Assembly (NCBI RefSeq): GCF_012027325.1
Contig: NZ_SNUG01000002.1
Coordinates: 117,211 to 141,210 of the forward strand
DNA: 24,000 nucleotides
Direction of reading: 5' to 3'
DNA from: Thermococcus sp. M39
Lineage (GTDB): Archaea > Methanobacteriota_B > Thermococci > Thermococcales > Thermococcaceae
Positions 2,549 to 19,809 of this stretch are shown here, one piece after another (the stretch's first letter is position 1; each line of letters begins with the position of its first letter). The notes below the pieces were generated by a model. That model ran no database searches and was not told the origin of the DNA. It saw nothing but the letters and a program-made list of their open reading frames with translations. The translations under genes were made by a program, and so were the position numbers.

Positions 2549-3163
2549 TTAAAGCTCTCCTTCAATCTCCTTCCTAATCCTTTTTGTGAACTCCTCGACA
2601 TATCTGTGTCTCTCAAGAGCCATTTCTTTGGCTGTTTTTGTGTACATCAAATCTTTAAGCTTTAGGATTTTTTCCTCGAAGTGCTTAAGAGAATCCTCTA
2701 TGCTTCTTCCATGCTCGCCAGAATACATAAAAACTCTCGCAATTCCTATTGCACCTATTGCATCAAGCTTGTCTGCATCGCTGAGGATTTTTGCCTCCAA
2801 TGTCTGTGGTTCTGGTGGTCTTGAAAAGCGATGAGCTTCAATCGCATGAGCCACTTGCTCCGCTTTTTCATAACCCAAGCCTTCAAGAAAGCGCTTCGCA
2901 ATTTTTGCTCCTTCCTTAGCATGGTCTTCAATTTTCCCTATGCTTTCAAGCGGTCTTGCAATGTCATGGAGGAGAGCAGCTAAAGCTAGAACCTCCAAAT
3001 CTGCACCCTCTTTCTCTCCAATGTGCATGCAAAGTGCAAGAACTCTTTCAGTGTGTGAGAATCCGTGTGTGCCTTCTCTTTCAAAAAAGCTTCTGGCAAA
3101 TTCTTCAGTCTTTTTGATTAGAGCTAAGCTTTTCTCATCTTTTATGAAGTCTTCGATTTTCAT
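2549..3163 (-). CDS. HD-domain metal-dependent phosphohydrolase
   Basis: H...HD signature (HGFSHTERV ... AALLHDIARP ... SDADKLD). The track start at 3172 is GTG. The ATG at 3163 is preceded by AGGTGAT (3168-3174). Confidence 0.85.
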   Translation of the reverse strand: MKIEDFIKDEKSLALIKKTEEFARSFFEREGTHGFSHTERVLALCMHIGEKEGADLEVLALAALLHDIARPLESIGKIEDHAKEGAKIAKRFLEGLGYEKAEQVAHAIEAHRFSRPPEPQTLEAKILSDADKLDAIGAIGIARVFMYSGEHGRSIEDSLKHFEEKILKLKDLMYTKTAKEMALERHRYVEEFTKRIRKEIEGEL

Positions 3164-3184
3164 CTTGATCACCTAGCTTTTTGA

Positions 3185-3991
3185 CTAAAGCTGATAATTC
3201 ACTGTTTCCTTTAAAAGCTCAACGATTTTTTCATGGATTTCAACACTTAGCCCGTCAACGCTTATAACAGGTTTCTTAATTATCCCGTCAATTAATCCAG
3301 CGGAAACTATTACTTCCAAGTTCTTTCGTTCATTCCAATCCTTCAGAAGGTTCTCTCCAATTTCAAGTGAAGCTTGAGCAACCAATCCGTAAGCTCCCCA
3401 ATTGGAGACTGCAGAAACTATGAGCTCATCGGTCTCAACCACAGTTGCAATCTTCTCTCCAAGAGGAATGTATTTTTCAATGAGATGTTTAATCTTTCCC
3501 ATACCTATTTCGTTGCCGCCATCACCAATCCCAATGGTCGGAATTCCCAATTCCTTAGCTTCCAAAAATACCTTATCAAAGGGTGGAACTTCTACTTCCA
3601 TACCACTCATGGAATAGTATTTTCCATCGCTTGCTCTTCCAACAGTCTCAACACTTATTAAGAGAGAATAATCTGAAGTAGCTGGTTTATCAACGAACGT
3701 AACATCAAAAGGTCTCAAGGCTTTTTTTACCTGCTCATGCGCCCAAATTTCCGCTTTTCCTCCAATTCTCTCAACAGCTTTGTAAATTGCTAAAGCTCCC
3801 AAAGGCCCGTCAGTTTCGCAGATATTCATGGGGGGGATTGGAAAGCTCGAGACTATCAAAACCTTCTCCGAATTGTCTAGGAGCAGTTTTGCAGCATTTT
3901 TCAAAAAATTGAAATTCTGAAGGCGGTATTTCAAATAGACTTTTAAAATCCCTCTGCCATAAATATCAGTATTTATTATGTGAGCTATCAT
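3185..3991 (-). CDS. DUF4392 / D-glutamate-cyclase-like domain protein
   Basis: 268-aa ORF. The motifs ETDGPLGA and GDGGNEIGMG match my memory of the DUF4392 (D-glutamate cyclase C-terminal-like) family. The ATG lies 3 nt after the stop of the upstream 59-aa ORF. Confidence 0.6.
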   Translation of the reverse strand: MIAHIINTDIYGRGILKVYLKYRLQNFNFLKNAAKLLLDNSEKVLIVSSFPIPPMNICETDGPLGALAIYKAVERIGGKAEIWAHEQVKKALRPFDVTFVDKPATSDYSLLISVETVGRASDGKYYSMSGMEVEVPPFDKVFLEAKELGIPTIGIGDGGNEIGMGKIKHLIEKYIPLGEKIATVVETDELIVSAVSNWGAYGLVAQASLEIGENLLKDWNERKNLEVIVSAGLIDGIIKKPVISVDGLSVEIHEKIVELLKETVNYQL

Positions 3992-3994
3992 TTT

Positions 3995-4174
3995 TCATTC
4001 CTCGATTTCGTATACTACAACCTTAACTCTCTTGCCCTTAAGAGCTTCTTTCAGCTCCCACCAAAGCTTTGTTAGAGCTTCTTGTGTATGAACCAACTTA
4101 TCTCCATTTTCAAGTTCAACTACCTTTTCTTTGTACTCAACAAAAACTCCCTCTTTGTTGAATATCTCTTTCAT
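3995..4174 (-). CDS. Small 59-aa hypothetical protein (not in ORF track; below 60 aa)
   Basis: Hand translation gives MKEIFNKEGVFVEYKEKVVELENGDKLVHTQEALTKLWWELKEALKGKRVKVVVYEIEE*. The ATG (4174-4172) overlaps the HAD stop TGA (4173-4171) as ATGA. A GGGGGGT SD lies upstream. Its stop is followed 3 nt later by the next ATG. K/E/V-rich composition is typical of genuine proteins in this genome. It exactly fills an otherwise empty 180-nt gap in an operon. Confidence 0.65.
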   Translation of the reverse strand: MKEIFNKEGVFVEYKEKVVELENGDKLVHTQEALTKLWWELKEALKGKRVKVVVYEIEE

Positions 4175-4815
4175 TCTAAACCCCCCAATATTTTTCTCAA
4201 TTCATAAAGTGTTCTAATTTCATAATCAGCAAAGTTGTAACCTTTGTCATTTCCTCTATTTATCCAAACAGCTGTCATTCCAACATTCTTTGCACCATAA
4301 ACATCTTGCTGCAGGCTGTCACCAATCATTATTGCCTCACTAGGCTCAACTTTAAGCTTTTCTAAAGCATAGAGAAATATTTTTGGATCAGGCTTTATTG
4401 TTTTTACGTCTTCTCTTGTAACAATTACATCAAAATAATTATCAAGCTTCGCTATTCTAAGCTTAAGCCTCTGGTATTCAGGGCCGCTTGTGATAACTCC
4501 AAGTTTGTATCCCTCTTCTTTCAGCCATTCTAAAGTCGGCTTCACATCTGGGAATACATGAATCTTATGTGGGTAAGCAGTTAAAAGTTCCTCATATCTC
4601 AGATCTAGGTTGAAAAGTCTGAAGAAAAAGTTCCAGTCATGCCACTCGTAGGTATCTCTTCGGCTCATGATCTCCTTAAGAAACCTAATCCTGGCATCTT
4701 CTTTTCTAATCCCAAGTTTTTTTGCAATTTCTTCATAGACCTGAGGAAGGAAAAGCATCATCAAGGGCCTTTCTGTCAGGAGTGTCTCATCTATGTCAAA
4801 CAGAATTGCCTCCAT
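4171..4815 (-). CDS. HAD-superfamily hydrolase (phosphatase)
   Basis: FDIDETL (DxDxT motif I), VITSG (motif II), K...MIGDSLQQDV (motifs III/IV). GAGGTGGT SD 4 nt upstream of the ATG. The start lies 20 nt inside the upstream gene. Confidence 0.88.
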   Translation of the reverse strand: MEAILFDIDETLLTERPLMMLFLPQVYEEIAKKLGIRKEDARIRFLKEIMSRRDTYEWHDWNFFFRLFNLDLRYEELLTAYPHKIHVFPDVKPTLEWLKEEGYKLGVITSGPEYQRLKLRIAKLDNYFDVIVTREDVKTIKPDPKIFLYALEKLKVEPSEAIMIGDSLQQDVYGAKNVGMTAVWINRGNDKGYNFADYEIRTLYELRKILGGLE

Positions 4816-5578
4816 TTGACCACCTCTTGATTAAAAGTGCTAATATTTCAATCTCATCCTCAAGCTCTTTGTTCATTCTGACTCCCCATATTATATCTTT
4901 TTCTCTAAGGAGATATTGGAACTTCCTTAAGATCTCATAGGCGCTTTTTAAAGGAACATTTTTACCCACCATTATGCTGATTAATCCTCTATCCCATATT
5001 CCCCAGTTCCATTCAAAGTCAACTTCTCTTAAAATGCGCAGTATTCCAATGTTCCCACCCTTAACCATATTAAACAAGTCAGCATAATCAATGTTAACAA
5101 GCATTTGGTTTTCGAGGTAATAGTAAAGCTTTGAAAACATGATGCCAATTTGCTTACTTGCTGCATTGAAGGCATCTTCCAAAGGTATTGAGGTGTAAGC
5201 ATCCAAAAACTCTGAGAGGGAGTCGTAGAAGACAGTTTCAAAATTACCAGCCCACTCTGGTTTTCTCTCATAGACAAGCTCTCTATATGGGGATAGCACA
5301 TAAGCTAAGCGAATCGCTTTCTTTGGGAGGTTATCATTGATAAGGTCTACAATTTCAATGTTAATCGGCTTATCCTCGAAGATAATCCAGACTATCGTGT
5401 CATCATTAAGATTACCAAAAAAATTCTTAATTTGCTTCACAAAGGAAGGTCTCTTTTTGTCAAAAAGATAATAAGAAGAGTCAAGGGGCACTTTAACAGC
5501 ATTAGGCACCTCAATGTTTTTCACAATCCTGATTCCACTGTTTCCAATCCCAACAAAAATATGAGTAAAGGAAATCAT
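4796..5578 (-). CDS. Divergent, truncated FtsZ/tubulin-superfamily protein lacking the GTP-binding T3/T4 loops
   Basis: 260 aa, alignable by eye with archaeal FtsZ: IFVGIGNSGIRIV (T1-like), VNIDYADLFNMVKGGNIG (T7 loop NxDxxD, FtsZ INVDFADVKAVMNNGGLA), and IIWGVRMNKELEDEIEILALLI (FtsZ IIWGATIDENLENTVRVLLVI). The GGGTGTG signature is replaced by EDKPINI. The ATG lies 8 nt after the hps-phi stop. Confidence 0.7.
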   Translation of the reverse strand: MISFTHIFVGIGNSGIRIVKNIEVPNAVKVPLDSSYYLFDKKRPSFVKQIKNFFGNLNDDTIVWIIFEDKPINIEIVDLINDNLPKKAIRLAYVLSPYRELVYERKPEWAGNFETVFYDSLSEFLDAYTSIPLEDAFNAASKQIGIMFSKLYYYLENQMLVNIDYADLFNMVKGGNIGILRILREVDFEWNWGIWDRGLISIMVGKNVPLKSAYEILRKFQYLLREKDIIWGVRMNKELEDEIEILALLIKRWSNGGNSV

Positions 5579-5586
5579 GGCGACCC

Positions 5587-6807
5587 CTATTCTAAGGTCG
5601 CATGCTTCTTCTTCATATCCTTTTCGGTCTTCTGGAATGTTGCCATCAGAAGTGCGATTATTCCATCTAAGAATACCATTGTTGAGTCCTCAAATAAAGT
5701 TCCCATTGGTGCTATCCACTTATACTGAGTTAGCATCTGCCTCGCTATGTAATCTGTTGGAACATCTGTCTTAGCCCTTCCTGGAATTTCAACTACAACA
5801 TCAGCCAGCTTGCCAAGTGTTGAGTTCTTATATGAGGTTATTGCAACAACCTTTCCACCTTGGTTTTTTGCAATCTCAGCAGCATCCACTATCGTCCTCG
5901 TCTCACCGCTTCCACTTATCGCTATCAGCAAATCACCCTCTTCAAATGCTGGAGTTATAGTCTCACCGACAACGTAGACATTGAAGTCAAGGTGCATTAA
6001 TCTCATAGCAAACGCTTTGCCAACCAATCCGCTCCTTCCAGCGCCGTAGATGAAAATCTTATTGGCTCCAATCATTGCATCAACCATTCCCCTGACTTCC
6101 TCAAGCCTAAGTGCATCGGCAACGTGATCAATATGTTCGGTTATGTCATGCATTGCCTTTCTTATTGTCTGCATGTATTCACCCCAGAAGAGGTCAATTA
6201 TCCTTCTTGTTACCTCTTCTGGATCCTCTGCCTTAGTTATTGCCCCCCCAACGATGATTATAGTCGCACCGAGCTCAATAACTTTGGGGATTGTTTCTAA
6301 GTTCAATCCTCCTGCAACTGCAACTGGAATTTTAACCGCTTTGACAACCTTTTCTAAATCTTCAAGCGGGCTTTTTCCTTGAGCCTGCTCATCTATCCCC
6401 GTGTGAACGAGGATATAATGAACTCCCATCTTCTCAAGCTCTTTTGCTCTCTTAACTTTGTCCTTAACACCTATCAAGTCCACCATAACTTTGATTCCAT
6501 ACTTTCTTGCCACCATGAGAGCATCTTTTATTGTCTTGTCATCAGCAACGCCAAGAATAGAGACAACGTCTGCTCCATGTCTCGCGGCCATCTCGACCTC
6601 TAAAGCTCCAGTGTCCATGGTCTTTAGGTCAGCGACTATCTTCCTATCTGGAAAGCGTCTCTTCATGAGCTCAACTGCTCTCATTCCCTCTTTTTTGATA
6701 AGAGGCGTTCCAACTTCAAGCCAATGAGCACCGCCACGAGCAGCTTTTTCCGCTATAGAAATGGCCTGTTCAATATCAGTTAAATCCAGAGCGACTTGTA
6801 AAATCAT
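5587..6807 (-). CDS. hps-phi: Bifunctional 3-hexulose-6-phosphate synthase / 6-phospho-3-hexuloisomerase (HPS-PHI fusion)
   Basis: N-terminal OMPDC-like HPS half (MILQVALDL..., VVSILG, HTGIDEQ) fused to a SIS-domain PHI half (IFIYGAGRSG, ISGSGET). This fusion is known in Thermococcales (TK0475/PH1938, 406 aa). The track start at 6861 is GTG. The ATG at 6807 with GGAGGAG SD (6814-6820) gives 406 aa. Confidence 0.93.
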   Translation of the reverse strand: MILQVALDLTDIEQAISIAEKAARGGAHWLEVGTPLIKKEGMRAVELMKRRFPDRKIVADLKTMDTGALEVEMAARHGADVVSILGVADDKTIKDALMVARKYGIKVMVDLIGVKDKVKRAKELEKMGVHYILVHTGIDEQAQGKSPLEDLEKVVKAVKIPVAVAGGLNLETIPKVIELGATIIIVGGAITKAEDPEEVTRRIIDLFWGEYMQTIRKAMHDITEHIDHVADALRLEEVRGMVDAMIGANKIFIYGAGRSGLVGKAFAMRLMHLDFNVYVVGETITPAFEEGDLLIAISGSGETRTIVDAAEIAKNQGGKVVAITSYKNSTLGKLADVVVEIPGRAKTDVPTDYIARQMLTQYKWIAPMGTLFEDSTMVFLDGIIALLMATFQKTEKDMKKKHATLE

Positions 6808-6955
6808 CTTGAACTCCTCCGAATATTTTTCTAAAGCTTTCACCTTAACATCAATATGCACACTTTTTAACTTTAACTCTCAAAATTTTTGACAAAAATT
6901 TGTAAACATAATGACATAATTATTTAATTGTCTCATTAAATATTGGTGGACTAAG

Positions 6956-6962: not shown

Positions 6963-6994
6963 GGAGTTCGCTAGATTAAATTTTGGGAGCTGCA

Positions 6995-7723
6995 ATGGTT
7001 ACGTTCATTCCATTTGGAGAAAAGCCAAACAGAGAGGGAGTCATGTATGTTCTCAACCTTCTGCGAAAGAATAAGCTTATTGAGGAATACATGATTGTTG
7101 AGTCGAACACCATTGAGCTGCTTTCTGAAAGATTACCCGTTGACAGGGCATATATAATCGGAGAGCACCTTGCGACTTATGGTATAGTCCAAAAGCTCAA
7201 ACCGAGAGCAGTTATAAGCATAGATGCTCATACTGATTTAATGCACGATTATTTAGATCACGGCTCTTGGCTTGCATATGCTCTCGAAAAGAGAGTAATT
7301 GAAAAGGCCTCAGTTATTGGTCCTGTTTTGATGATACCCACTACAGAAGGCACTGAGCTGTGGACGAGAAGAGTTAAGATATTCCCCGCTTTACCCAGAA
7401 GCAAGAAAACAAGAGGTAAATGGAAAGCGTATAAAAGTCTGAAAAATCATCCAGTAGAGGAGATAATTAAGGATGCAAAGAAGTATCTCGGAGATGAAAT
7501 TTATCTCACCGTTGATTTAGATGTTCTGTTGCCTGAATATAAAATTGCTCGCTTTCAGCATGGCGAGCTCACATTAGAGGATCTCCTTCATATCATTGAA
7601 GAGATTAAAAAGAACTTTAAGATCATAGCATTTGACATAGCGGAGATTTCGGACAAGATAAAGCGCTCACGTCTAGGGAAGAAAGCATTAATTGATGTGT
7701 TCCAACTGCTGAGTGGTGAGTGA
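6995..7723 (+). CDS. Short arginase/ureohydrolase-fold protein (agmatinase-like paralog)
   Basis: Family motifs are present: IGEHLAT (for GGDHS), SIDAHTDL (DAHxD), LTVDLDVL (SxDxD), AFDIAEIS (DxxE). It is only 242 aa. The track start at 6983 is TTG, and I prefer the ATG at 6995. A TTTAAAA TATA box sits at 6956-6962. Confidence 0.7.
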   Translation: MVTFIPFGEKPNREGVMYVLNLLRKNKLIEEYMIVESNTIELLSERLPVDRAYIIGEHLATYGIVQKLKPRAVISIDAHTDLMHDYLDHGSWLAYALEKRVIEKASVIGPVLMIPTTEGTELWTRRVKIFPALPRSKKTRGKWKAYKSLKNHPVEEIIKDAKKYLGDEIYLTVDLDVLLPEYKIARFQHGELTLEDLLHIIEEIKKNFKIIAFDIAEISDKIKRSRLGKKALIDVFQLLSGE

Positions 7724-9319: not shown

Positions 9320-12300
9320 TCACTTCAAAATATACTGTTTGATCTCCGCATACATGTTATTCAGCACTTCTTGGTAGTCCGCCTTGTTTTCCTCTACCAA
9401 GTCCATAAGCTCTTCAAGCTGCCTTGTTCTTTCCTCACTCACAAGCTCTTTGTATTTGCTTATGAGATAGTGATAGACTTTAGTTCCAAGCTCTGTTGGG
9501 ACTAACTTCTTCCTTCCTTTTGTCTCAATGACATAGTGCCTGTCCAATAAAGTCTTAACAATTTTTGCATAGGTAGATGGCCTTCCAATTTTGCGCTCTT
9601 TCATTAGGGCAATTAAATCACCCTGGGTGTAGAGGGAAACTTTTGGCGCTCTCCATTTCTTAACCTCAAGGACTTTGAGCTTCTGTCCTTTCTCAAGCTT
9701 TGGCAACTGTCTTAATGGTGGTGCCCTTAACTTAGTCCACCCATCAAAGATTATTTCAATGTATCCTTCAATTTCAGTCTTAGCAACTTTTGCATCAATT
9801 ACTGCCTTTTCATAAAGGACTTTTGCAGCTTTCATCTGCGATGCCATGAAGCGTTTGAATATCATATCATAAAGCCTGAAGTGATCTCTTGTGAGTCCCC
9901 TTGCAAGGGTAATGACACCATCTCTCAGCAGTTGCATCAATCTTCCGGTGTCAATTGGTCTTGTGGGCCTTATACACTCGTGTGCTCCCTCTTCACCCCA
10001 CTTTCTTGGAGCGAAGTATTCCTCTCCAATTTCTTCGCTAATGTATTCCTTCGCAACTTCAATACCTGTGTTGCTGACGTGAGTCGAATCAGTTCTGTGA
10101 TAAGTGATAAGACCGAGCTCGAAAAGATCCTGTGCCAACTGCATTGTATGAGGAGCGGAAAATCCTAAAAACCTTGAAGCATCTTGGAGCATTGTATCTG
10201 TGGTATACGGTGGGAACGGGTTGATTTCCTTCTCCTCAATTTGGACGTCTTCAATAGTTACTTCCCCAACTTCCTCTTTGACACCTTCAAGGGTTACGCT
10301 TAAGCCGTTCTCCAAAGTCAGTGCCATGAAATCTGTCTCGCTCTCGACGAATTCCTTGTATCTCTGTATCACCCATCCAAGAACGGGTGTTTGAACTCTA
10401 CCAGCTGATAAGTTTCTGCTCTCAAAGACCTCCCACAGCTTTTGACTGAGCTCAAATCCAATCCATCTGTCCTCTATTCTCCTTACTAGCTGAGCATTAA
10501 CTCTGAACTCATTAACGTCTCTTGCTTCATTCAAGGCTTTCAATATGGCTGGTCTTGTAATCTCGTGGAACTCAATACGCTTGATGTTTGGAGTGTAAGG
10601 ACTTAGGACATTCCTAATATCCCATGCAATCTTTTCTCCCTCGACATCGGGATCAGTTCCTATGAGAATTTCATCAACTTCCTGGGCTATCTCACGCATT
10701 GCAATTACATTCTCCAGGGCATCTCTAACATTCCTTGAGCCGCATCTCGGGCAGACTCCCTTCTCCTCCCAGTCAACGAACTGATGACCGCAGTCTCTAC
10801 AGCGTTTTATTGTGTCATAGACTGGTATGAAGTAGAGCTTTCCATCCCTCTCCTCTATGAGGACGCCGTGATAACCTTCCGTTGTAACGAGGTCGAACAT
10901 ATGCCCACCGCTTGCCAGAATCGTCAGCATCCTGTCGCCTATGCTGACTTCATATGCCACCAAGTCGCCAATTCTCCTCTTGCTTGGCTGTCCGAAGAAG
11001 TTGGCTATTGTTCTAGCTTTGTTTGGAGATTCAACTATCATGAGGGCAGACTTAACTAAATCCTTGGTCTTCTCACTTATCTTTCCGGCAAGAATTAGCT
11101 TGACTTTCTCTCTATCAGCGTCGATCTCCTTGAGAAGCTCCTCAAGGTTAAGCTCTTCAAATGGCTTCATTTCGAACTCTGCAAAGCGCCATCTCATCTG
11201 TCTCTTCAAGCCGTTAAAGACCTTTTCGTTATCGACTATTATTATGCTCAGACCCTTTGTAATTCCACCAGCGAAGAGACGTGAAGTTCTTCCGCTTGCC
11301 TGGATGTAAGTCCTAACATCAGGAATCTCAATGTACCATTTTCCTTCCTCTTCTTTGAGGCTGACAAATGGGTCTTCTTCTATGCGTTTGAGCACTTCTT
11401 CTTTCTTTAGGACTCTTCTTAAGAACTCAACGCTCTGCTTGAACACTTCAAGGACATGGCTGTGGAATCCTTCTAACGGTAGACCTTCAGCTAATGCCTC
11501 TTCAATCTTCATCAATTCAAACTGTGGAATGTTTCTAATCAGACGCCTTAAGCGAGCATATAATCTTTCGCCTTCTCTCCTGTCTTCTTCATTGAGGAAC
11601 TCCATGACTTCACTCATTAAACCTAAAACTCTGTAAATTGTAGGTTGCTCTAAATCGAGGCTGAACCTAAATTTCGGCACACCTGTAAAGATTGCGTATC
11701 TAATCAAGTGCGGCAAATCTAATCCTCTAACTATGGTTCCATAATAGGTTGCAACACCGACCAAATAGTCAATTTCCTCGTTTTCAAACTTCTCTAAGCC
11801 TTTCTTATTCCTCGCAGAGACAAGCTCAACCTTGAAGCCTTTCTCTTGGAGGTATTGTGTAAGTTTCTCAGCATAACCAATTCCTTGATCAATTGGGACA
11901 AAAATTAATCCACCTTTGCCAAGCTTTGCTAAAAGCTCCTCCACATGTTCCTCAATTGGCTTCCCTGGGAAGAGATAGCTGTCAACAACATTTCTCAACG
12001 CTGACCTTCCACTTCCCACCTCGAAGTCCAAAAGCTCACGGTAGAGCTTTATTCTATCTCCCCTTGCGCTTCCAGTTGCTGAAGCTACAATTAAAACTCC
12101 AATCTTATTCTCACGCTTGAATTTTCTTATTTCTCTCTCAAGCTTGTCAATCTGCTTGTTGAGTTCATTGAGCTGCTCTTGCTTGTCTGGGCTGTTGCCG
12201 TTGAGGAACTTTGCCATCTGCTTCTTCAGCCTTATAATCTCCCAGGCTTTCTGGATTATTTCCTCTGTAAAGCCGAGCAGAATAAGGGAGCGATCAATGT

Positions 12301-12970
12301 TCTTTGAGGCTTTCAAAAATGCATCAACATCATCAACAAAAATGAAGTCAAATCTCTTATCCTTGAGCATCTCGTCGAAGTTTCTTGCAAGCCATTGGGC
12401 TGAAGTTATGAGAATATCAAAATCTCCATTCATGATTTTTTCAGTCATCTCCTCTTTTTCCTTCTTCTTCATGCCACCATGGTAATAAGCAAGATTGATT
12501 TCAATCCCAGCCCTTTCTGCAAATGTTTTCACTCTCTTAATTGTCTGCACTACAAGCGGTGTTGTTGGTAAGACTATGTAGCTCTTCTTTTTCTTTTTAG
12601 CGTAATACAACGTCATGAATGAGCCAAAAACGCTCTTACCCATACCTGTTGGGGCTATGATGGAAAAGCTCTTGTTTTTAATTAGTCTTTTTACCCAAGT
12701 TTTTTGTGCGCTCCAAAAGTTGAAACCTGTGGCTTTTTCAAAAAGTTCCTCAATTTCCCTCAGATTTTTCTCAAGCTTGTAAATCTCTTCCCAGTGCTTT
12801 AAAGCCCCTTTCAGCTTAAGAGCTTCTCTAATCCCCCTAACAAGGTCAAAATAAATTTCAGCTTGAATTTCCTCATCGAGACAAACATTACATGGATGCT
12901 TCTTGTACAAGCGTTCATCACTAATTCTACCCTCACAGTTTGGACACATCCCCCTATAAATCGCCTTCAT
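9320..12970 (-). CDS. rgy: Reverse gyrase (helicase-topoisomerase IA fusion), intein-free
   Basis: N-terminal Zn finger CPNCEG...CNVC; Walker A APTGMGKS; motif II VDDVDA; motif [10 protein letters not shown]; Toprim MIVESPNKA and DPDVEGE; second Zn finger CRDCGH...CPRCG; catalytic-Tyr motif ITYHRTDS. The ATG at 12970 with GAGGGTGAG SD gives 1216 aa. Confidence 0.97.
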
Positions 12971-13008
12971 TTTCTCACCCTCTAATGTTCTATTTAGATG
13001 ATGCAAAG

Positions 13009-13015: not shown

Positions 13016-13047
13016 GGGTTTTTTAGATTTCCCTCGTGGGTGAGAGC

Positions 13048-13422
13048 ATGATTGTCGAAGGTGTTAGGCTCAAGGCTGAGCTCACTGAAGAGCAGTATGA
13101 GAGAGCAATAAAGCTTATAGAGAGGCTAAAATCAAGATTTCCAAATGCTCTAGTGAAAAAATTCAAAACACAAGAAAAGATAAGCTTTATTGATGTATAT
13201 CTAGGTGTAAGGTTGAATTTTGATATAATAATTGGAAATCGTGGTAAGCCATTCATAGCTGTAGAAATGGAGGGAAACAAGTCAAAATACGCCTTTCAGA
13301 TAATGAAATTTTTCCTTGACGAGCTTGGTGTTGAGTATTCCTTTGATTTTGATGGAAGAGAAGTTTATGACGCGTTGAAGAGGAAGATTAAGGCGAAGAG
13401 CTTGCTAGATTATTTGACGTAA
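13048..13422 (+). CDS. Hypothetical protein (124 aa)
   Basis: K/E-rich ORF with GGTGAG SD (13038-13043) before the ATG at 13048. The antisense ORF 13023..13280 is S/I/F-rich and was rejected. No motif recognised. Confidence 0.6.
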   Translation: MIVEGVRLKAELTEEQYERAIKLIERLKSRFPNALVKKFKTQEKISFIDVYLGVRLNFDIIIGNRGKPFIAVEMEGNKSKYAFQIMKFFLDELGVEYSFDFDGREVYDALKRKIKAKSLLDYLT

Positions 13423-13941
13423 ATTTTTCAGTTCTTCAAGCTCTCTCTCAATCTCCTCAGTGAGCTCATAATCATAAAAAACTTTCTTAAATTCTCCAAA
13501 CTGTATGAGCAAGGATTCATAAAATTCCTCTGAAAACTCCATCTTTAGCAGAGCAAAAGCTTTCCTAAATAGCCTCGCGGCCTCACTTCCACTTTCGTCG
13601 TGATTCACATAATAGATTAGCTCCTTTAAGATAATGGACTTTCCAATCTCAAGATTTCCAAAAATAATCCCATCCACAACAGCTTGCGGCGAAAGCTCTA
13701 CTAAAGGGCTTAGTGTCTCAAAATATTCTCCGTTCTCAAAAGCCTCCAGCACAGCAAATACATGCTTGCAATCTCTCCCAATAGGACAAGTGCATCTGCT
13801 TTTTCCACCTTTTATGCTGACCTCAACGTAATACGGATAAGTCCCTAGAACTTTTCCATAAAGTCTATCTCCATACTTCAGCACCCACAGAACCTTGCCC
13901 TTTTTGAAATACTGCTTTCCCTTCTTTTCCGCATTATCCAT
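13405..13941 (-). CDS. SWIM zinc-finger domain protein
   Basis: CTCPIGRDCKH matches the SWIM CxCxnCxH signature after a beta-rich N-terminus, followed by a helical C-terminal half. The track start at 13965 is TTG. The ATG at 13941 lies 32 nt from a CTTTAAAA TATA box (13973-13980). Confidence 0.75.
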   Translation of the reverse strand: MDNAEKKGKQYFKKGKVLWVLKYGDRLYGKVLGTYPYYVEVSIKGGKSRCTCPIGRDCKHVFAVLEAFENGEYFETLSPLVELSPQAVVDGIIFGNLEIGKSIILKELIYYVNHDESGSEAARLFRKAFALLKMEFSEEFYESLLIQFGEFKKVFYDYELTEEIERELEELKNLRQII

Positions 13942-14047
13942 ATTAACCACTAAAGTTAGTAACAATTGAGCCTTTTAAAGATTTCGTTGTACATTACCAC
14001 CATCAAGCATATAAATCCAAATAGTGAACTAATATTGGGGTGGTAGC

Positions 14048-14281
14048 ATGGACGTTTTTGAGCTTGCGCGGAGGTATCATCAAGAGATTGGAATAAAGGA
14101 GCCAAGCTTTGCAACCTTGGCCGCGGAAATCTTTGGAGAGCTTGGTCTCAAGATATATGAGCATTTAAAGAACGAGGGTTACACTCTCAAAAGTACTCGT
14201 TTTATTGACTACGACAATAGCCTTGTATTGGAAGTGGTAAAAGGAGAGAAAGCCTTCGAGATTCTTCTCAGAAAGGCTTAA
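14048..14281 (+). CDS. Hypothetical protein (77 aa)
   Basis: ORF with GGGGTGGT SD and an ATATAAAT TATA box (14009-14016) 32 nt upstream. No motif recognised. Confidence 0.55.
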   Translation: MDVFELARRYHQEIGIKEPSFATLAAEIFGELGLKIYEHLKNEGYTLKSTRFIDYDNSLVLEVVKGEKAFEILLRKA

Positions 14282-15585
14282 ACTCTATAGTCGAACACTA
14301 TTTCCTTCTTTTCTCCTGGCTTTACAGTTACTTTGAACTCCACATAGTGTGCTGTTTCATCTATTGGTTCTACTGTAGAGCTCAATATTTTGCCACTCCA
14401 CTTGTAATGCCTGACAATAACTTCTTTCGTCTCGTCTCCAAAATTCTCAATTGTAATTCTCACTTTGTAGTATGTTGAATCGCTTTCTCTTCTCTGCTCG
14501 AGGATTTCTGTTTTGCCTTTTAGATCGACATCCCTTCCAAGCTTGAGCCTCAATATATCGCCTTTAGCGGTGTGATCAATTTTCTGCTCACCAATTAAAA
14601 CTGTTGTATCGTTCATTTCTTTGTAAATCTCTACAATGCCAGCTGGAAGCACTTTCTCAGTCTTAAATGAGATAATCTCGTAAATTTCATTACTTCCACC
14701 GTAGGGATAGCTCTCGTATAGATACTTCCTTTCAAAAGATGTCTCTTGGGTAATGTAAGGTATCATCTTCTTTTCAAATGGGTTTACACTGAGTATTCCA
14801 AGGTTGTAAAGGTAGAATGCTTCAATTTTTTGAGGTTGCTCTGGAATTCCAGCAACTGCTTTTTCTGCCGTCGCATAAATCCTTTCCATAACGACTTGCG
14901 GAGGAGCATAGAAGTTCACTTCCCCCGAAACGAGCATAACTTTAAAGTCTTCAAATGTCTTGTTTGTAGGATTGTCAATCACTATGTATCCAAAGAGCAA
15001 GGCTTTGTTGGTTAGGTAAAGCTTATACCTTGAGCTCCAGCCAATCGACTGAACTCTGTAAATCAGCTTGAACTTATACTTTCCATCTTCCTCAGCTTGT
15101 ATAATGGCATAAGTTTGGGCTTTGGCTTTGCTTCCCAGTTCAGCAAGCTTCATATATGCAACTTCCTCGGGCTCAATCAGATAGTAGGAATCTCCCTGAA
15201 CTGCTATCTTGCCGTCTTTGTAGCCTAAAAACTTCCCCGTTATTGTTTCACCACTCTTCAGCTTTATTGTGACAGTTTTTCCAATGTTTGCTTCAAGCAC
15301 TCCTTTGCTTGGGTATGCTTGCGAAATAATTCCCAGAACCGTAACTTTGTCGCTCAAAGGCTTTACTGTAACTTCCTCAATATTCAAACCTTCAATCTCC
15401 TCGAGAGGAACTTCATTGAATCCCTTTTTGAGGTCTAAGGTAATTGTTTTCTCGACAACTCCAATGCGTGCAGAGTCGTAGAGAACCAAAGTTCCGCTTT
15501 CATCTGCAGCCCTTGTTTGATGTAGTACTATCATTGCCAAGAGCAAAAAAGCTACAAAAATTCCACCTAAAATTTTCTTTTTCAT
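14278..15585 (-). CDS. Secreted or N-terminally anchored beta-rich protein, DUF4139-like
   Basis: N-terminal MKKKILGGIFVAFLLLAMIVL anchor/signal. The central W..RY...(14)..IDNPT...F.....L.SGEVN pattern resembles DUF4139 family proteins as I remember them. GGTGA SD at 15592-15596 and TATAAATA at 15618-15625. Confidence 0.6.
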   Translation of the reverse strand: MKKKILGGIFVAFLLLAMIVLHQTRAADESGTLVLYDSARIGVVEKTITLDLKKGFNEVPLEEIEGLNIEEVTVKPLSDKVTVLGIISQAYPSKGVLEANIGKTVTIKLKSGETITGKFLGYKDGKIAVQGDSYYLIEPEEVAYMKLAELGSKAKAQTYAIIQAEEDGKYKFKLIYRVQSIGWSSRYKLYLTNKALLFGYIVIDNPTNKTFEDFKVMLVSGEVNFYAPPQVVMERIYATAEKAVAGIPEQPQKIEAFYLYNLGILSVNPFEKKMIPYITQETSFERKYLYESYPYGGSNEIYEIISFKTEKVLPAGIVEIYKEMNDTTVLIGEQKIDHTAKGDILRLKLGRDVDLKGKTEILEQRRESDSTYYKVRITIENFGDETKEVIVRHYKWSGKILSSTVEPIDETAHYVEFKVTVKPGEKKEIVFDYRV

Positions 15586-18857: not shown

Positions 18858-19496
18858 CTATGTATAATACCTAATAAGAAGTTCCCCAAGTCTAGATAAT
18901 TTGTAGTATTTGTGCTGGGTTCGTGTTTCCTTCTTGGGTTTTGCCTTTCTATGCTTCCTTTTCAATATTTTCGGCTTACATTCCGCTATTAGGTTCAGTT
19001 TCACAAGATTTCTAAGTATGCTTCGAGTATCCTCAAGATTCACTGAGAATACACGAGATATGGTCGCGGCATGTTCATATCTTGCTTTTTTCAAAAATAA
19101 TAAGAGTTCTAAAGTATTCCTGTATCCAGAGATATTGCTCAGGTATTCACCGAGCAAGTTGTTTGTTTTAATAGTTCGTAACAGGTGCTTTCCTTCTTTA
19201 GTTAGTCTGTAATAAGTGTGATGCTTTCGAACCTCAGCACTCAGTTTGAATCTTGCCTCGGTTCTCTTAATAGCAGCACCATGAGTGCGCTCTATTATTC
19301 CAAGTTTTTCCAGCTCCTCCAAGGATTCTGCAACTTTTTCTATTGGCATCTCTATCATCTTAGCTATTGATTTGGCATAATCTATGTTTGCTTGACGTAA
19401 GTGTGCCAGTATGTATACTTGTAGTGGTGTCAGTGACTTCAGGATGCCCATTAATTTTTCATTACAATCTGTACTCTCTTCTGATGATTTTCCCAA
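18858..19496 (-). CDS. Tandem double winged-helix (PadR-like) protein with extended basic wings
   Basis: Two internal wHTH modules, each ending in a PadR-like wing motif (HHTYYRLTKEGKHLL and QHKYYKLSRLGELLI). TTG start at 19496 with a strong GGAGGGG SD (19504-19510), overlapping the upstream gene by 35 nt. An alternative ATG at 19451 has no SD. Confidence 0.7.
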   Translation of the reverse strand: MGKSSEESTDCNEKLMGILKSLTPLQVYILAHLRQANIDYAKSIAKMIEMPIEKVAESLEELEKLGIIERTHGAAIKRTEARFKLSAEVRKHHTYYRLTKEGKHLLRTIKTNNLLGEYLSNISGYRNTLELLLFLKKARYEHAATISRVFSVNLEDTRSILRNLVKLNLIAECKPKILKRKHRKAKPKKETRTQHKYYKLSRLGELLIRYYT

Positions 19497-19809
19497 TTTG
19501 CTTCCCCTCCTTTGTTAGTTCAAAGTATTGTCCGTGTCTTCTAATTTCTCTCGATTTTGCCCGAATTTTAATATGTGGTTTTATACTTGAAGTAGGAGCA
19601 TGTTTCGGTACTATTTTTCCAGTGATCTTTCTGATAAGCCCTTTTTTACATAGTTCTAAGCAGGCATCCTCTATTTCATGTAAGTTGATGTAGGTCTTTG
19701 TTCCCAAAAGTCTCCTGCTCATTAGCTTGGGAGTGTCTGGTCCAAATATTAAAAGGTGTAAAATAATCTTCTTCTGCAATTCATCTAAATTCTTTATCTC
19801 CTCATCCAT
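19462..19809 (-). CDS. Single winged-helix (PadR-like) protein with extended basic wing; paralog of the modules in 18858..19496
   Basis: 115 aa. An HTH region is followed by KGLIRKITGKIVPKHAPTSSIKPHIKIRAKSREIRRHGQYFELTKEGKQI. The ATG lies 6 nt after the TatD-like stop. Confidence 0.7.
   Translation of the reverse strand: MDEEIKNLDELQKKIILHLLIFGPDTPKLMSRRLLGTKTYINLHEIEDACLELCKKGLIRKITGKIVPKHAPTSSIKPHIKIRAKSREIRRHGQYFELTKEGKQIGKIIRREYRL

Follow-up and report, generated by a model that had tools for sequence, protein, structure and literature searches.

The window analysed here, by which we mean the whole stretch of 24,000 nucleotides (nt), comes from Thermococcus sp. M39 (contig NZ_SNUG01000002.1, positions 117,211 to 141,210 of the forward strand), and all coordinates given below are positions within it. 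At 4796..5578, on the minus strand, it carries an ATG-initiated open reading frame (ORF) of 260 amino acids (aa), just as a preliminary description made from the letters alone had reported, and its neighbours are a bifunctional 3-hexulose-6-phosphate synthase/6-phospho-3-hexuloisomerase gene (hps-phi, or hxlAB) on one side and a HAD phosphatase gene on the other. We call the product FtsZL, a putative FtsZ-like pseudo-GTPase recognised by its FtsZ fold, by a profile of its family and by the ratio of nonsynonymous to synonymous substitution rates (dN/dS) of its gene.

As a single sequence FtsZL scores weakly against FtsZ, yet all of its single-sequence matches in Pfam, NCBIfam and the PDB are to FtsZ. 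The Pfam domain FtsZ_C (PF12327) is matched with an expectation value (E) of 0.021 and 15.6 bits against a cut-off of 27, the NCBIfam model TIGR00065 (ftsZ) with E 3.2e-5 and 23.4 bits against a cut-off of 295.2 and over aa 199-247 only, and a phmmer search of the PDB returns M. jannaschii FtsZ (MjFtsZ) at E 0.045; the Pfam scan gives no match to the Tubulin/FtsZ GTPase domain PF00091. FtsZL thus falls far under the cut-off of every curated FtsZ model and has no above-threshold match in Pfam or NCBIfam, so that none of the existing family models (TIGR00065, PF12327, PF00091) covers it. The names given to its orthologues in databases vary accordingly: some are called "FtsZ/tubulin family protein" (Pyrococcus abyssi), "Cell division GTPase" or "cell division GTPase FtsZ", most are "hypothetical", and the Thermococcus kodakarensis entry BAD84665.1, which we infer to be TK0476, reads "containing leucine zipper motif".

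The family as a whole gives a much clearer signal. A profile built from 27 FtsZL sequences matches MjFtsZ in the PDB (1w58, 1fsz) at E 8.2e-7, its best match, and nearly all of the 36 other PDB matches listed are FtsZ or CetZ, with other FtsZs at E 0.05-9 and CetZ (3zid) at E 0.19. When the family was compared by hhalign with an alignment of 12 canonical FtsZs, homology was found at a probability of 96.7% (E 4.5e-10) over aa 116-248. An AlphaFold2 (AF2) model computed from the family alignment has a mean predicted local distance difference test score (pLDDT) of 85.6 and a predicted template modelling score (pTM) of 0.85, and it shows the two-domain architecture of a Rossmann-like N-terminal domain, a core helix H7 and a C-terminal domain. 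The best 50 PDB matches of this model in Foldseek are all FtsZ, at E 4.7e-12 to 1.5e-10, with TM-scores of 0.56-0.72 and full-length alignments. A chance resemblance can be rejected because of the E-values obtained by profile, hhalign and Foldseek, and FtsZL is a true FtsZ homologue, a member of the FtsZ/tubulin superfamily by fold and by homology, as had first been proposed. The initial proposal that the match runs along the whole protein stands in part: the structure model and the motif alignment back the N-terminal half, whereas statistical significance at the sequence level is reached for aa 116-248 only. FtsZL is not a CetZ, being nearer to MjFtsZ than to CetZ and having a degenerate GTP pocket.

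Motif positions were taken from a joint alignment (A3) with canonical FtsZs, invariance was counted over the 27 family members and coordinates, all on the minus strand, were checked by translation. In the AF2 model the secondary-structure elements follow the order S1-H1-S2-(H2)-H3-S4-H4-S5-H5-S6-H6-H7-T7-H8-S7-[loop]-S8-H10-S9-S10, which is the topology of FtsZ minus strand S3 and helix H9. On the nucleotide-binding side, a remnant of the T1 loop, G10-I-G-N-S-G15 (5534..5551), keeps glycines G10, G12 and G15 invariant and aligned with the FtsZ motif GxGGxG, in agreement with the T1 match originally made by eye. Beyond it the alignment with FtsZ shows a deletion of about 25 residues that comprise S3, T3 and the first part of H3, a loss that had already been noticed for T3, and in the model S2 leads on to H3 without an intervening strand. 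At the position of T4, where the tubulin signature GGGTGTG is expected, we find E68-D-K-P-I-N73 (5360..5377), which confirms the replacement read from the single sequence; it contains no glycine, its positions 68-69 are mostly acidic across the family and N73 is invariant. The T5 loop is reduced to P97-Y-R-E100 (5279..5290), 5 aa shorter than PFxFEG of FtsZ and with P97 and E100 invariant, the position of the T6 Asn carries an invariant Y118-D119-S120, and the guanine-contacting Asp of H7 is lost throughout the family, being replaced by S, A or T.

To our knowledge, the T4 glycine signature is kept in every GTP-binding member of the superfamily. Because FtsZL has acidic side chains at these positions, and with T3 deleted and the H7 Asp gone, canonical GTP binding has in all likelihood been lost, and its retention appears very unlikely.

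The opposite side of the molecule has fared differently. The T7 synergy loop, N162-I-D164-Y-A-D167 (5078..5095), aligns with NxDxxD of FtsZ, and N162, D164 and D167, rightly recognised from the outset as intact, are invariant in 27/27 members. The S9 motif I-I-W-G (4883..4894), with I230, W231 and G232 invariant, reads as in the IIWGA of archaeal FtsZ, and the "bottom" longitudinal face formed by T7 (N-x-D-x-x-D), H8 and S9 is as a whole FtsZ-like and invariant. Between S7 and S8 an 18-column gap relative to FtsZ marks the deletion of H9, the model has no helix there, and in its place stands a Trp-rich loop at aa 184-196, REVDFEWNWGIWD (4991..5029), with the motif WxWGxW and with W190, W192, G193 and W195 invariant. 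The protein ends 7 residues past the conserved KRW that closes S10, where most orthologues stop, and it has neither the C-terminal linker nor the tail peptide for membrane anchors, the absence of a tail having been noted early on. The label "truncated" that was first applied to FtsZL is therefore apt as far as it says that the protein is shortened, but the shortening is also due to internal deletions (S3/T3, 5 aa in T5 and 18 aa at H9), and H9 has been replaced by the Trp loop rather than simply removed.

Conservation is spread unevenly over these parts. Identity to canonical FtsZ is 40% in T7-H8, 27% in T1 and 24% in S9-S10, and it is lowest around T4 (11%) and in the Trp loop (5%). Within the family, conservation is highest in S7 (0.91), followed by T7-H8 (0.78), the Trp loop (0.76) and S6-T6-H6 (0.74), and lowest in S2-H3 (0.54) and T4-H4 (0.60). 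The replacement of H9 by an invariant WxWGxW loop, together with the strong conservation of T5-T6-H6, suggests that FtsZL has probably gained new surfaces and not merely shed old ones. The family has 50 invariant columns, and comparison with three orthologues of 86-93% identity gives a dN/dS of 0.046-0.066. The gene is under strong purifying selection, and because of this dN/dS we reject a pseudogene reading.

FtsZL is the second of six tightly packed genes on the minus strand. The first, hxlAB (5587..6861), scores 556.7 bits against NF041755 (cut-off 500); its mechanically called ORF starts at a GTG and has 424 aa, and since the orthologues are of 406 aa and begin with "MILQVALDL", translation probably starts from the ATG at 6807. 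It lies upstream of FtsZL and is separated from it by 8 nt (TAG-GGGTCGCC-ATG). The 3' end of FtsZL overlaps by 20 nt the gene for a HAD phosphatase of the TIGR02253 family (4171..4815), whose ATG is preceded by AGGTGGT and which has a close solved homologue (4ygq, E 6.6e-109); both junctions had been described correctly as an 8-nt spacer and an overlap. A conserved ORF of 59 aa (3995..4174) follows, with a 4-nt overlap with the HAD gene and a 3-nt gap to the next gene; the Pfam scan gives no match for it, and T. kodakarensis and P. abyssi have called genes of 62-67 aa in the corresponding place. Next is a homologue of TON_0340 (GLUCM-like_C/DUF4392; 3185..3991; PF14336 at 3e-66, PDB 4dwz at 3.9e-113, one of several solved structures), probably a Mn-dependent phosphatase like TON_0340 itself according to its biochemistry (PMC5132392). 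After a 12-nt spacer the run closes with an HD-domain phosphohydrolase (2549..3172), assigned by synteny and by the PF01966 match of its T. kodakarensis orthologue, and its stop codon is followed by a run of T nucleotides (T5). A sigma-70 promoter scan was set aside as not meaningful for an archaeon. Divergent from hxlAB, on the plus strand at 6983-7723, a TTG-initiated gene encodes an arginase-family protein. Its 45 bits lie far under the agmatinase/arginase equivalog cut-off of 174, so that it probably represents a separate ureohydrolase-like subfamily, and Thermococcus keeps the gene in this place whereas P. abyssi does not.

The order hxlAB, FtsZL, HAD, (small ORF), GLUCM-like is found in T. 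kodakarensis, in P. abyssi and, within the limits of the contigs, in all 71 Thermococcales loci, and hps-phi lies directly upstream of FtsZL, with spacers from 8 nt, wherever a contig extends that far (about 65 of the 71). Beyond this conserved block the genes differ between Pyrococcus and Thermococcus. A homologue search found 71 sequences, of which every one named by organism is from Thermococcus, from Pyrococcus or from an unclassified Thermococci archaeon. A scan of genomes gave 30 loci, all of Thermococcales type and labelled as Thermococci, and a scan of metagenomes gave 37, also all of Thermococcales type. In a profile search of 1.84 billion cluster representatives the family forms a single 50%-identity cluster plus fragments, after which there is a large gap before the next matches, mostly canonical FtsZ from E ~7e-8; a few repeat proteins that also score in this library are taken to be spurious. 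FtsZL is single-copy, and its ORF is intact wherever contigs are complete. Full-length FtsZL is therefore confined to Thermococcales and present in every Thermococcales locus recovered.

This restriction, which bears on whether the family is peculiar to Thermococcales, holds for the full-length form only. We also found a distant sister family of 178 aa (31% identity) with three members (P0083, P0171 and P0155; GCA_964436705.1), encoded at 1581-2117 of contig L036, 1745-2281 of L037 and 8001-8537 of L038. These contigs have 33-36% GC and encode aRF1, PAN and ProRS, and the PDB matches of PAN and aRF1 indicate that the carrier is archaeal. By hhalign the short family matches the Thermococcales family at a probability of 97.9% (E 5e-13, 101 columns aligned at 37% identity), the alignment being ungapped at the site of H9, and it matches FtsZ at only 67%. 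The two families have in common the derived H9 deletion, a "WDRGL" motif and a C-terminal Trp. The short form lacks S1-T1-H1-S2 and most of H7, and it keeps T7 (as N-x-D-L-A-D), H8 and the C-terminal domain. A scan of Joint Genome Institute (JGI) metagenomes with both subfamilies in the query alignment gave Thermococcales-type loci only and revealed no new lineage.

In all three of its loci the short-family gene follows a stand-alone hps (TIGR03128, 230-242 bits, cut-off 200) at a distance of 13 nt. PHI is not adjacent, the other genes of the FtsZL cluster are absent and the remaining neighbours are entirely different, so the only arrangement that the two lineages share is hps with the FtsZ-like gene behind it. 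The short family gave no matches in PHROGs and Pfam scans, nor did the neighbours of P0089, a further FtsZ-like protein. P0089 is a metagenomic singleton of 331 aa (787-1782 of contig L035) that is more FtsZ-like, with the S3/T3 deletion of FtsZL, with H9 and T5 retained and with a T4 replacement, "EDxINxEI" ("DLEDNINYEI"), that resembles the one in FtsZL. We considered it as a bridge family and rejected this, as it is a single sequence on a 2.7-kb contig without an hps neighbour, its gene overlapping a downstream ORF of 221 aa without a family match, and its context is uninformative. Likewise, P0169 (471 aa), which appeared to be a fusion of FtsZL and the HAD phosphatase and as such would have counted as Rosetta-stone evidence, was rejected as an assembly artefact: it comes from a Logan assembly of T. 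kodakarensis-like reads, it contains homopolymer-type insertions (GGGNVG, WGGIW) and it pulled HAD proteins into the same 90% cluster.

The adjacency to hps in two lineages is the strongest new clue to function, and it points to a functional tie to the enzyme of the ribulose-monophosphate (RuMP) pathway that a model of FtsZL as a filament capper alone would not explain. According to the passages of PMC12628685 that cite Orita et al. 2005 and 2006, the hps-phi product of these archaea converts fructose-6-phosphate to ribulose-5-phosphate and formaldehyde, thereby supplying ribose-5-phosphate for nucleotides. The preliminary description treated the gene context as incidental, with FtsZL merely wedged between its neighbours; this does not hold, given that the adjacency is present in every Thermococcales locus whose contig extends upstream (about 65 of the 71) and in 3/3 short-family loci. 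It was right that FtsZL is not in a division cluster, as the 24-kb window contains no division or cytoskeletal genes. Taken together, the earlier interpretation is partly supported: its identification and motif analysis were right, its mechanism is plausible and the gene context was under-read.

How, then, might FtsZL act? We tentatively favour the possibility that it is a pseudo-GTPase which would dock by its T7 face on canonical FtsZ or CetZ and would be co-expressed with the RuMP operon. The T7 aspartates of FtsZ take part in catalysis in trans, whereas folding does not require them, and their invariance in FtsZL therefore argues for a retained trans-acting role. Given that T7 is invariant in a protein without a pocket, and kept in a sister family that has shed half of its N-terminal domain, the simplest expectation is that the T7 face still engages the nucleotide pocket of another protein. 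The retention of T7, H8 and the C-terminal domain in the short family likewise suggests that the T7 face is the conserved functional core. This pattern, with T7-H8 the most FtsZ-like region and the sister family reduced to T7 plus the C-terminal domain, fits the idea of a capper or trans-activator put forward in the preliminary description.

In such a mechanism FtsZL would not polymerise as FtsZ does, because it would have no GTP binding and no receiving (top) face, and it is probably a regulator rather than a filament former. Its T7 face would dock where FtsZ1, FtsZ2 or CetZ of the host exposes a nucleotide pocket, and there it could complete the active site in trans while offering no site for further growth. 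FtsZL may then serve as an end-binder at the GTP-exposing end of a filament, as a decoy on the top face of free, GTP-bound monomers or as a GTPase activator, and its Trp loop and T5-T6-H6 region would be free for another binding partner. As described in the section of PMC9897490 that deals with filament polarity, FtsZ subunits join at the end exposing the C-terminal (T7) face and leave at the other, which we infer to be the nucleotide-exposing end. Since FtsZL is apparently co-transcribed with hps-phi, its dosage would be tied to the pentose/nucleotide-precursor pathway, and a dose that follows hps-phi expression could provide a metabolic input to the cytoskeleton.

Several observations weigh against docking by the T7 face. 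No division or cytoskeletal gene lies near FtsZL, and hps, the one neighbour kept in both lineages, points to the enzyme instead of to FtsZ. Furthermore, aa 1-129 contain 20 invariant positions and T5-T6-H6 is very conserved, neither of which would be needed by a protein that caps with its bottom face only. Finally, T7-H8 and S9 are the slowest-evolving parts of FtsZ in general, and their retention may be partly inertia.

The main alternative, though rather unlikely in our estimate, is that FtsZL has no FtsZ role at all and is an accessory subunit, regulator or scaffold of HPS (fused to PHI in Thermococcales). It would then act in the reverse RuMP pathway, in enzyme assembly or stability, in flux control or in handling the formaldehyde by-product. 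The position of hps(-phi) directly upstream in all Thermococcales loci that reach far enough, and the repetition of this arrangement at 13 nt behind a stand-alone HPS on three contigs with otherwise different neighbours, are what such a role would predict; the rest of the Thermococcales cluster is metabolic as well (HAD phosphatase, TON_0340 Mn-phosphatase, HD hydrolase), and the Trp loop and KPxWAxxFETVFYDS, as newly invariant surfaces, hint at an interaction with a new partner. However, no sugar-phosphate enzyme is known to us to have a subunit with the FtsZ fold, it would go unexplained why the catalytic N-x-D-x-x-D of T7 is invariant, and the gene pair is backed by two lineages only, for which an inherited gene order is possible. 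In addition, in the portion of PMC12628685 concerned with it, the HPS-PHI fusion of these archaea is summarised as a characterised enzyme that is bifunctional by itself. An unlikely compromise would have FtsZL link HPS(-PHI), bound to its top face or Trp loop, to FtsZ or CetZ, bound to its T7 face, as a checkpoint coupling the supply of nucleotide precursors to division or shape; alternatively, FtsZL would be the first instance in which the FtsZ fold has been exapted as a metabolic-enzyme subunit.

Both faces of FtsZL are conserved (bottom: T7-H8 0.78, S7 0.91; top: T5-T6-H6 0.70-0.74, with 14 invariant residues), and this could also be read as a sign of nucleotide-independent self-assembly, in which the T7 face would bind the remodelled top face of the next subunit and dimers or filaments would form a GTP-free scaffold. 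The single copy of the gene and the retained overall architecture of FtsZ would suit such a scaffold. We consider it improbable, since the former phosphate site now carries acidic E/D residues, which would be set opposite T7 aspartates that are acidic as well, and the short family lacks most of the top face while keeping T7.

Quite doubtful is the notion of a remodelled ligand sensor, whereby the degenerate pocket (the T1 glycines, N73, E100 and Y118-D119) would bind some other small molecule, for example a sugar phosphate of the RuMP pathway, that controls the activity of FtsZL. The T1 GxGxxG glycines, N73, P97/E100 and Y118-D119-S120 are indeed invariant, and the operon context includes sugar-phosphate and phosphatase genes. 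Against this, S2-H3 and T4-H4 are the least conserved parts of the protein, and the short family has no T1, which means that the pocket is not a family-wide core. That FtsZL is an ordinary small GTP-binding paralog of FtsZ, as the FtsZ-type names of some orthologues imply, or else a decaying remnant without function is scarcely credible, the former in view of the deleted T3, the T4 without glycines, the lost H7 Asp, the 23 bits against a TIGR00065 cut-off of 295 and the missing PF00091 match, and the latter in view of a dN/dS of ~0.05, 50 invariant columns and ORFs intact on all complete contigs.

Returning to FtsZL as a protein that would dock on FtsZ or CetZ, its features can be set beside those of known systems. 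With M. jannaschii FtsZ (1FSZ, 1W58) it has in common the two-domain fold, the order of secondary-structure elements, the T1 glycines, the T7 N-x-D-x-x-D and the S9 IIWG. It differs in having no S3/T3, EDKPIN at T4, a short T5, no H7 Asp and a Trp loop in place of H9, in lacking the N-terminal extension, the C-terminal linker and tail and the division context, and in scoring below the curated cut-offs.

The nearest functional analogue is ARC3 of plant chloroplasts, which is also derived from FtsZ, does not form a ring and regulates canonical FtsZ, and whose FtsZ-like domain is not known to carry the GTP-binding signature. ARC3 is eukaryotic and multidomain (with a middle domain and MORN) and is tied to ARC6, PARC6 and MinD/E, whereas FtsZL is a bare FtsZ core in a metabolic operon. 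As part of the plastid Min system, ARC3 uses its FtsZ-like domain to inhibit Z-ring assembly directly, according to a published abstract, and a passage of PMC12232670 citing Shaik et al. 2018 reports that it raises the GTPase activity of FtsZ2.

MciZ, MipZ, SulA and the interface-defective FtsZ cappers occupy one longitudinal interface of FtsZ and thereby block or alter subunit exchange, as proposed here for FtsZL; such capping and end-binding regulators, and the polarity of FtsZ filaments, are treated in part of PMC9897490. MciZ, MipZ and SulA have unrelated folds and attach to the T7/C-terminal (plus-end) face, whereas FtsZL would present its own T7 to the opposite, nucleotide-exposing face and would be a naturally occurring "top-face-dead" FtsZ.

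CetZ is, like FtsZL, an extra paralog of the tubulin superfamily in Thermococcales, but its GTP pocket is complete and its genomic links are to type IV pilus-like genes. Brown & Duggin 2023 (PMC9856176) note nucleotide and cofactor metabolism genes near cetZ, and the searched passages of their survey do not mention the FtsZL family. FtsZl1 and FtsZl2, like FtsZL, are divergent FtsZ-like families that were found by sensitive sequence methods and read by their genome context, and the relevant passages of Makarova & Koonin 2010 (PMC2875224) connect them with membrane remodelling and with genes for vWA, OmpA-family and GTPase proteins. None of these neighbours occurs in the window or in related loci, and this gene context, not a direct sequence comparison, sets FtsZL apart from both. 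UgtP, OpgH and GdhZ/KidO are proteins tied to metabolism that adjust FtsZ assembly to nutrient status, and they are enzymes or enzyme homologues moonlighting on FtsZ. FtsZL would reverse this arrangement, being itself derived from FtsZ and having only its gene tied to a pathway.

The usual description of Thermococcales credits them with FtsZ1, FtsZ2 and one CetZ, and FtsZL is a fourth gene of the tubulin superfamily, recovered across Thermococcus and Pyrococcus. Our literature searches, which included the locus tags of orthologues, found no paper on the family, on its degenerate pocket or on its linkage to hps. Because FtsZL has no above-threshold match in Pfam, domain-based surveys may miss it, and the missing coverage in Pfam and NCBIfam may explain its absence from the surveys and papers searched. 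FtsZL can be regarded as a natural "half FtsZ", with the catalytic T7 face kept and the nucleotide face destroyed, much like the interface mutants engineered for studies of filament polarity. FtsZL could reveal how archaeal FtsZ or CetZ dynamics are controlled, for which few regulators have been described, and its position behind hps(-phi) in two deep lineages raises the prospect either of a link between pentose/nucleotide supply and the cytoskeleton or of a new metabolic use of the FtsZ fold. T. kodakarensis, which carries the orthologue BAD84665.1, is genetically tractable.

Elsewhere in the window, the reverse gyrase gene at 9320-13006 (minus strand) encodes 1228 aa, compared with 1711 aa for its T. 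kodakarensis counterpart, which contains an intein and LAGLIDADG domains, so that the intein is absent in the M39 genome. An ORF of 435 aa at 14278-15585 (minus strand) and one of 128 aa at 13036-13422 (plus strand) have no Pfam match at E <= 1e-4, and both adjoin the gene for a SWIM zinc-finger protein (13405-13965). The overlapping genes at 18858-19496 and 19462-19809 (both minus strand) each encode a DUF2250 protein, an archaeal family resembling winged helix-turn-helix (wHTH) proteins, and they may be a paralogous pair of regulators.

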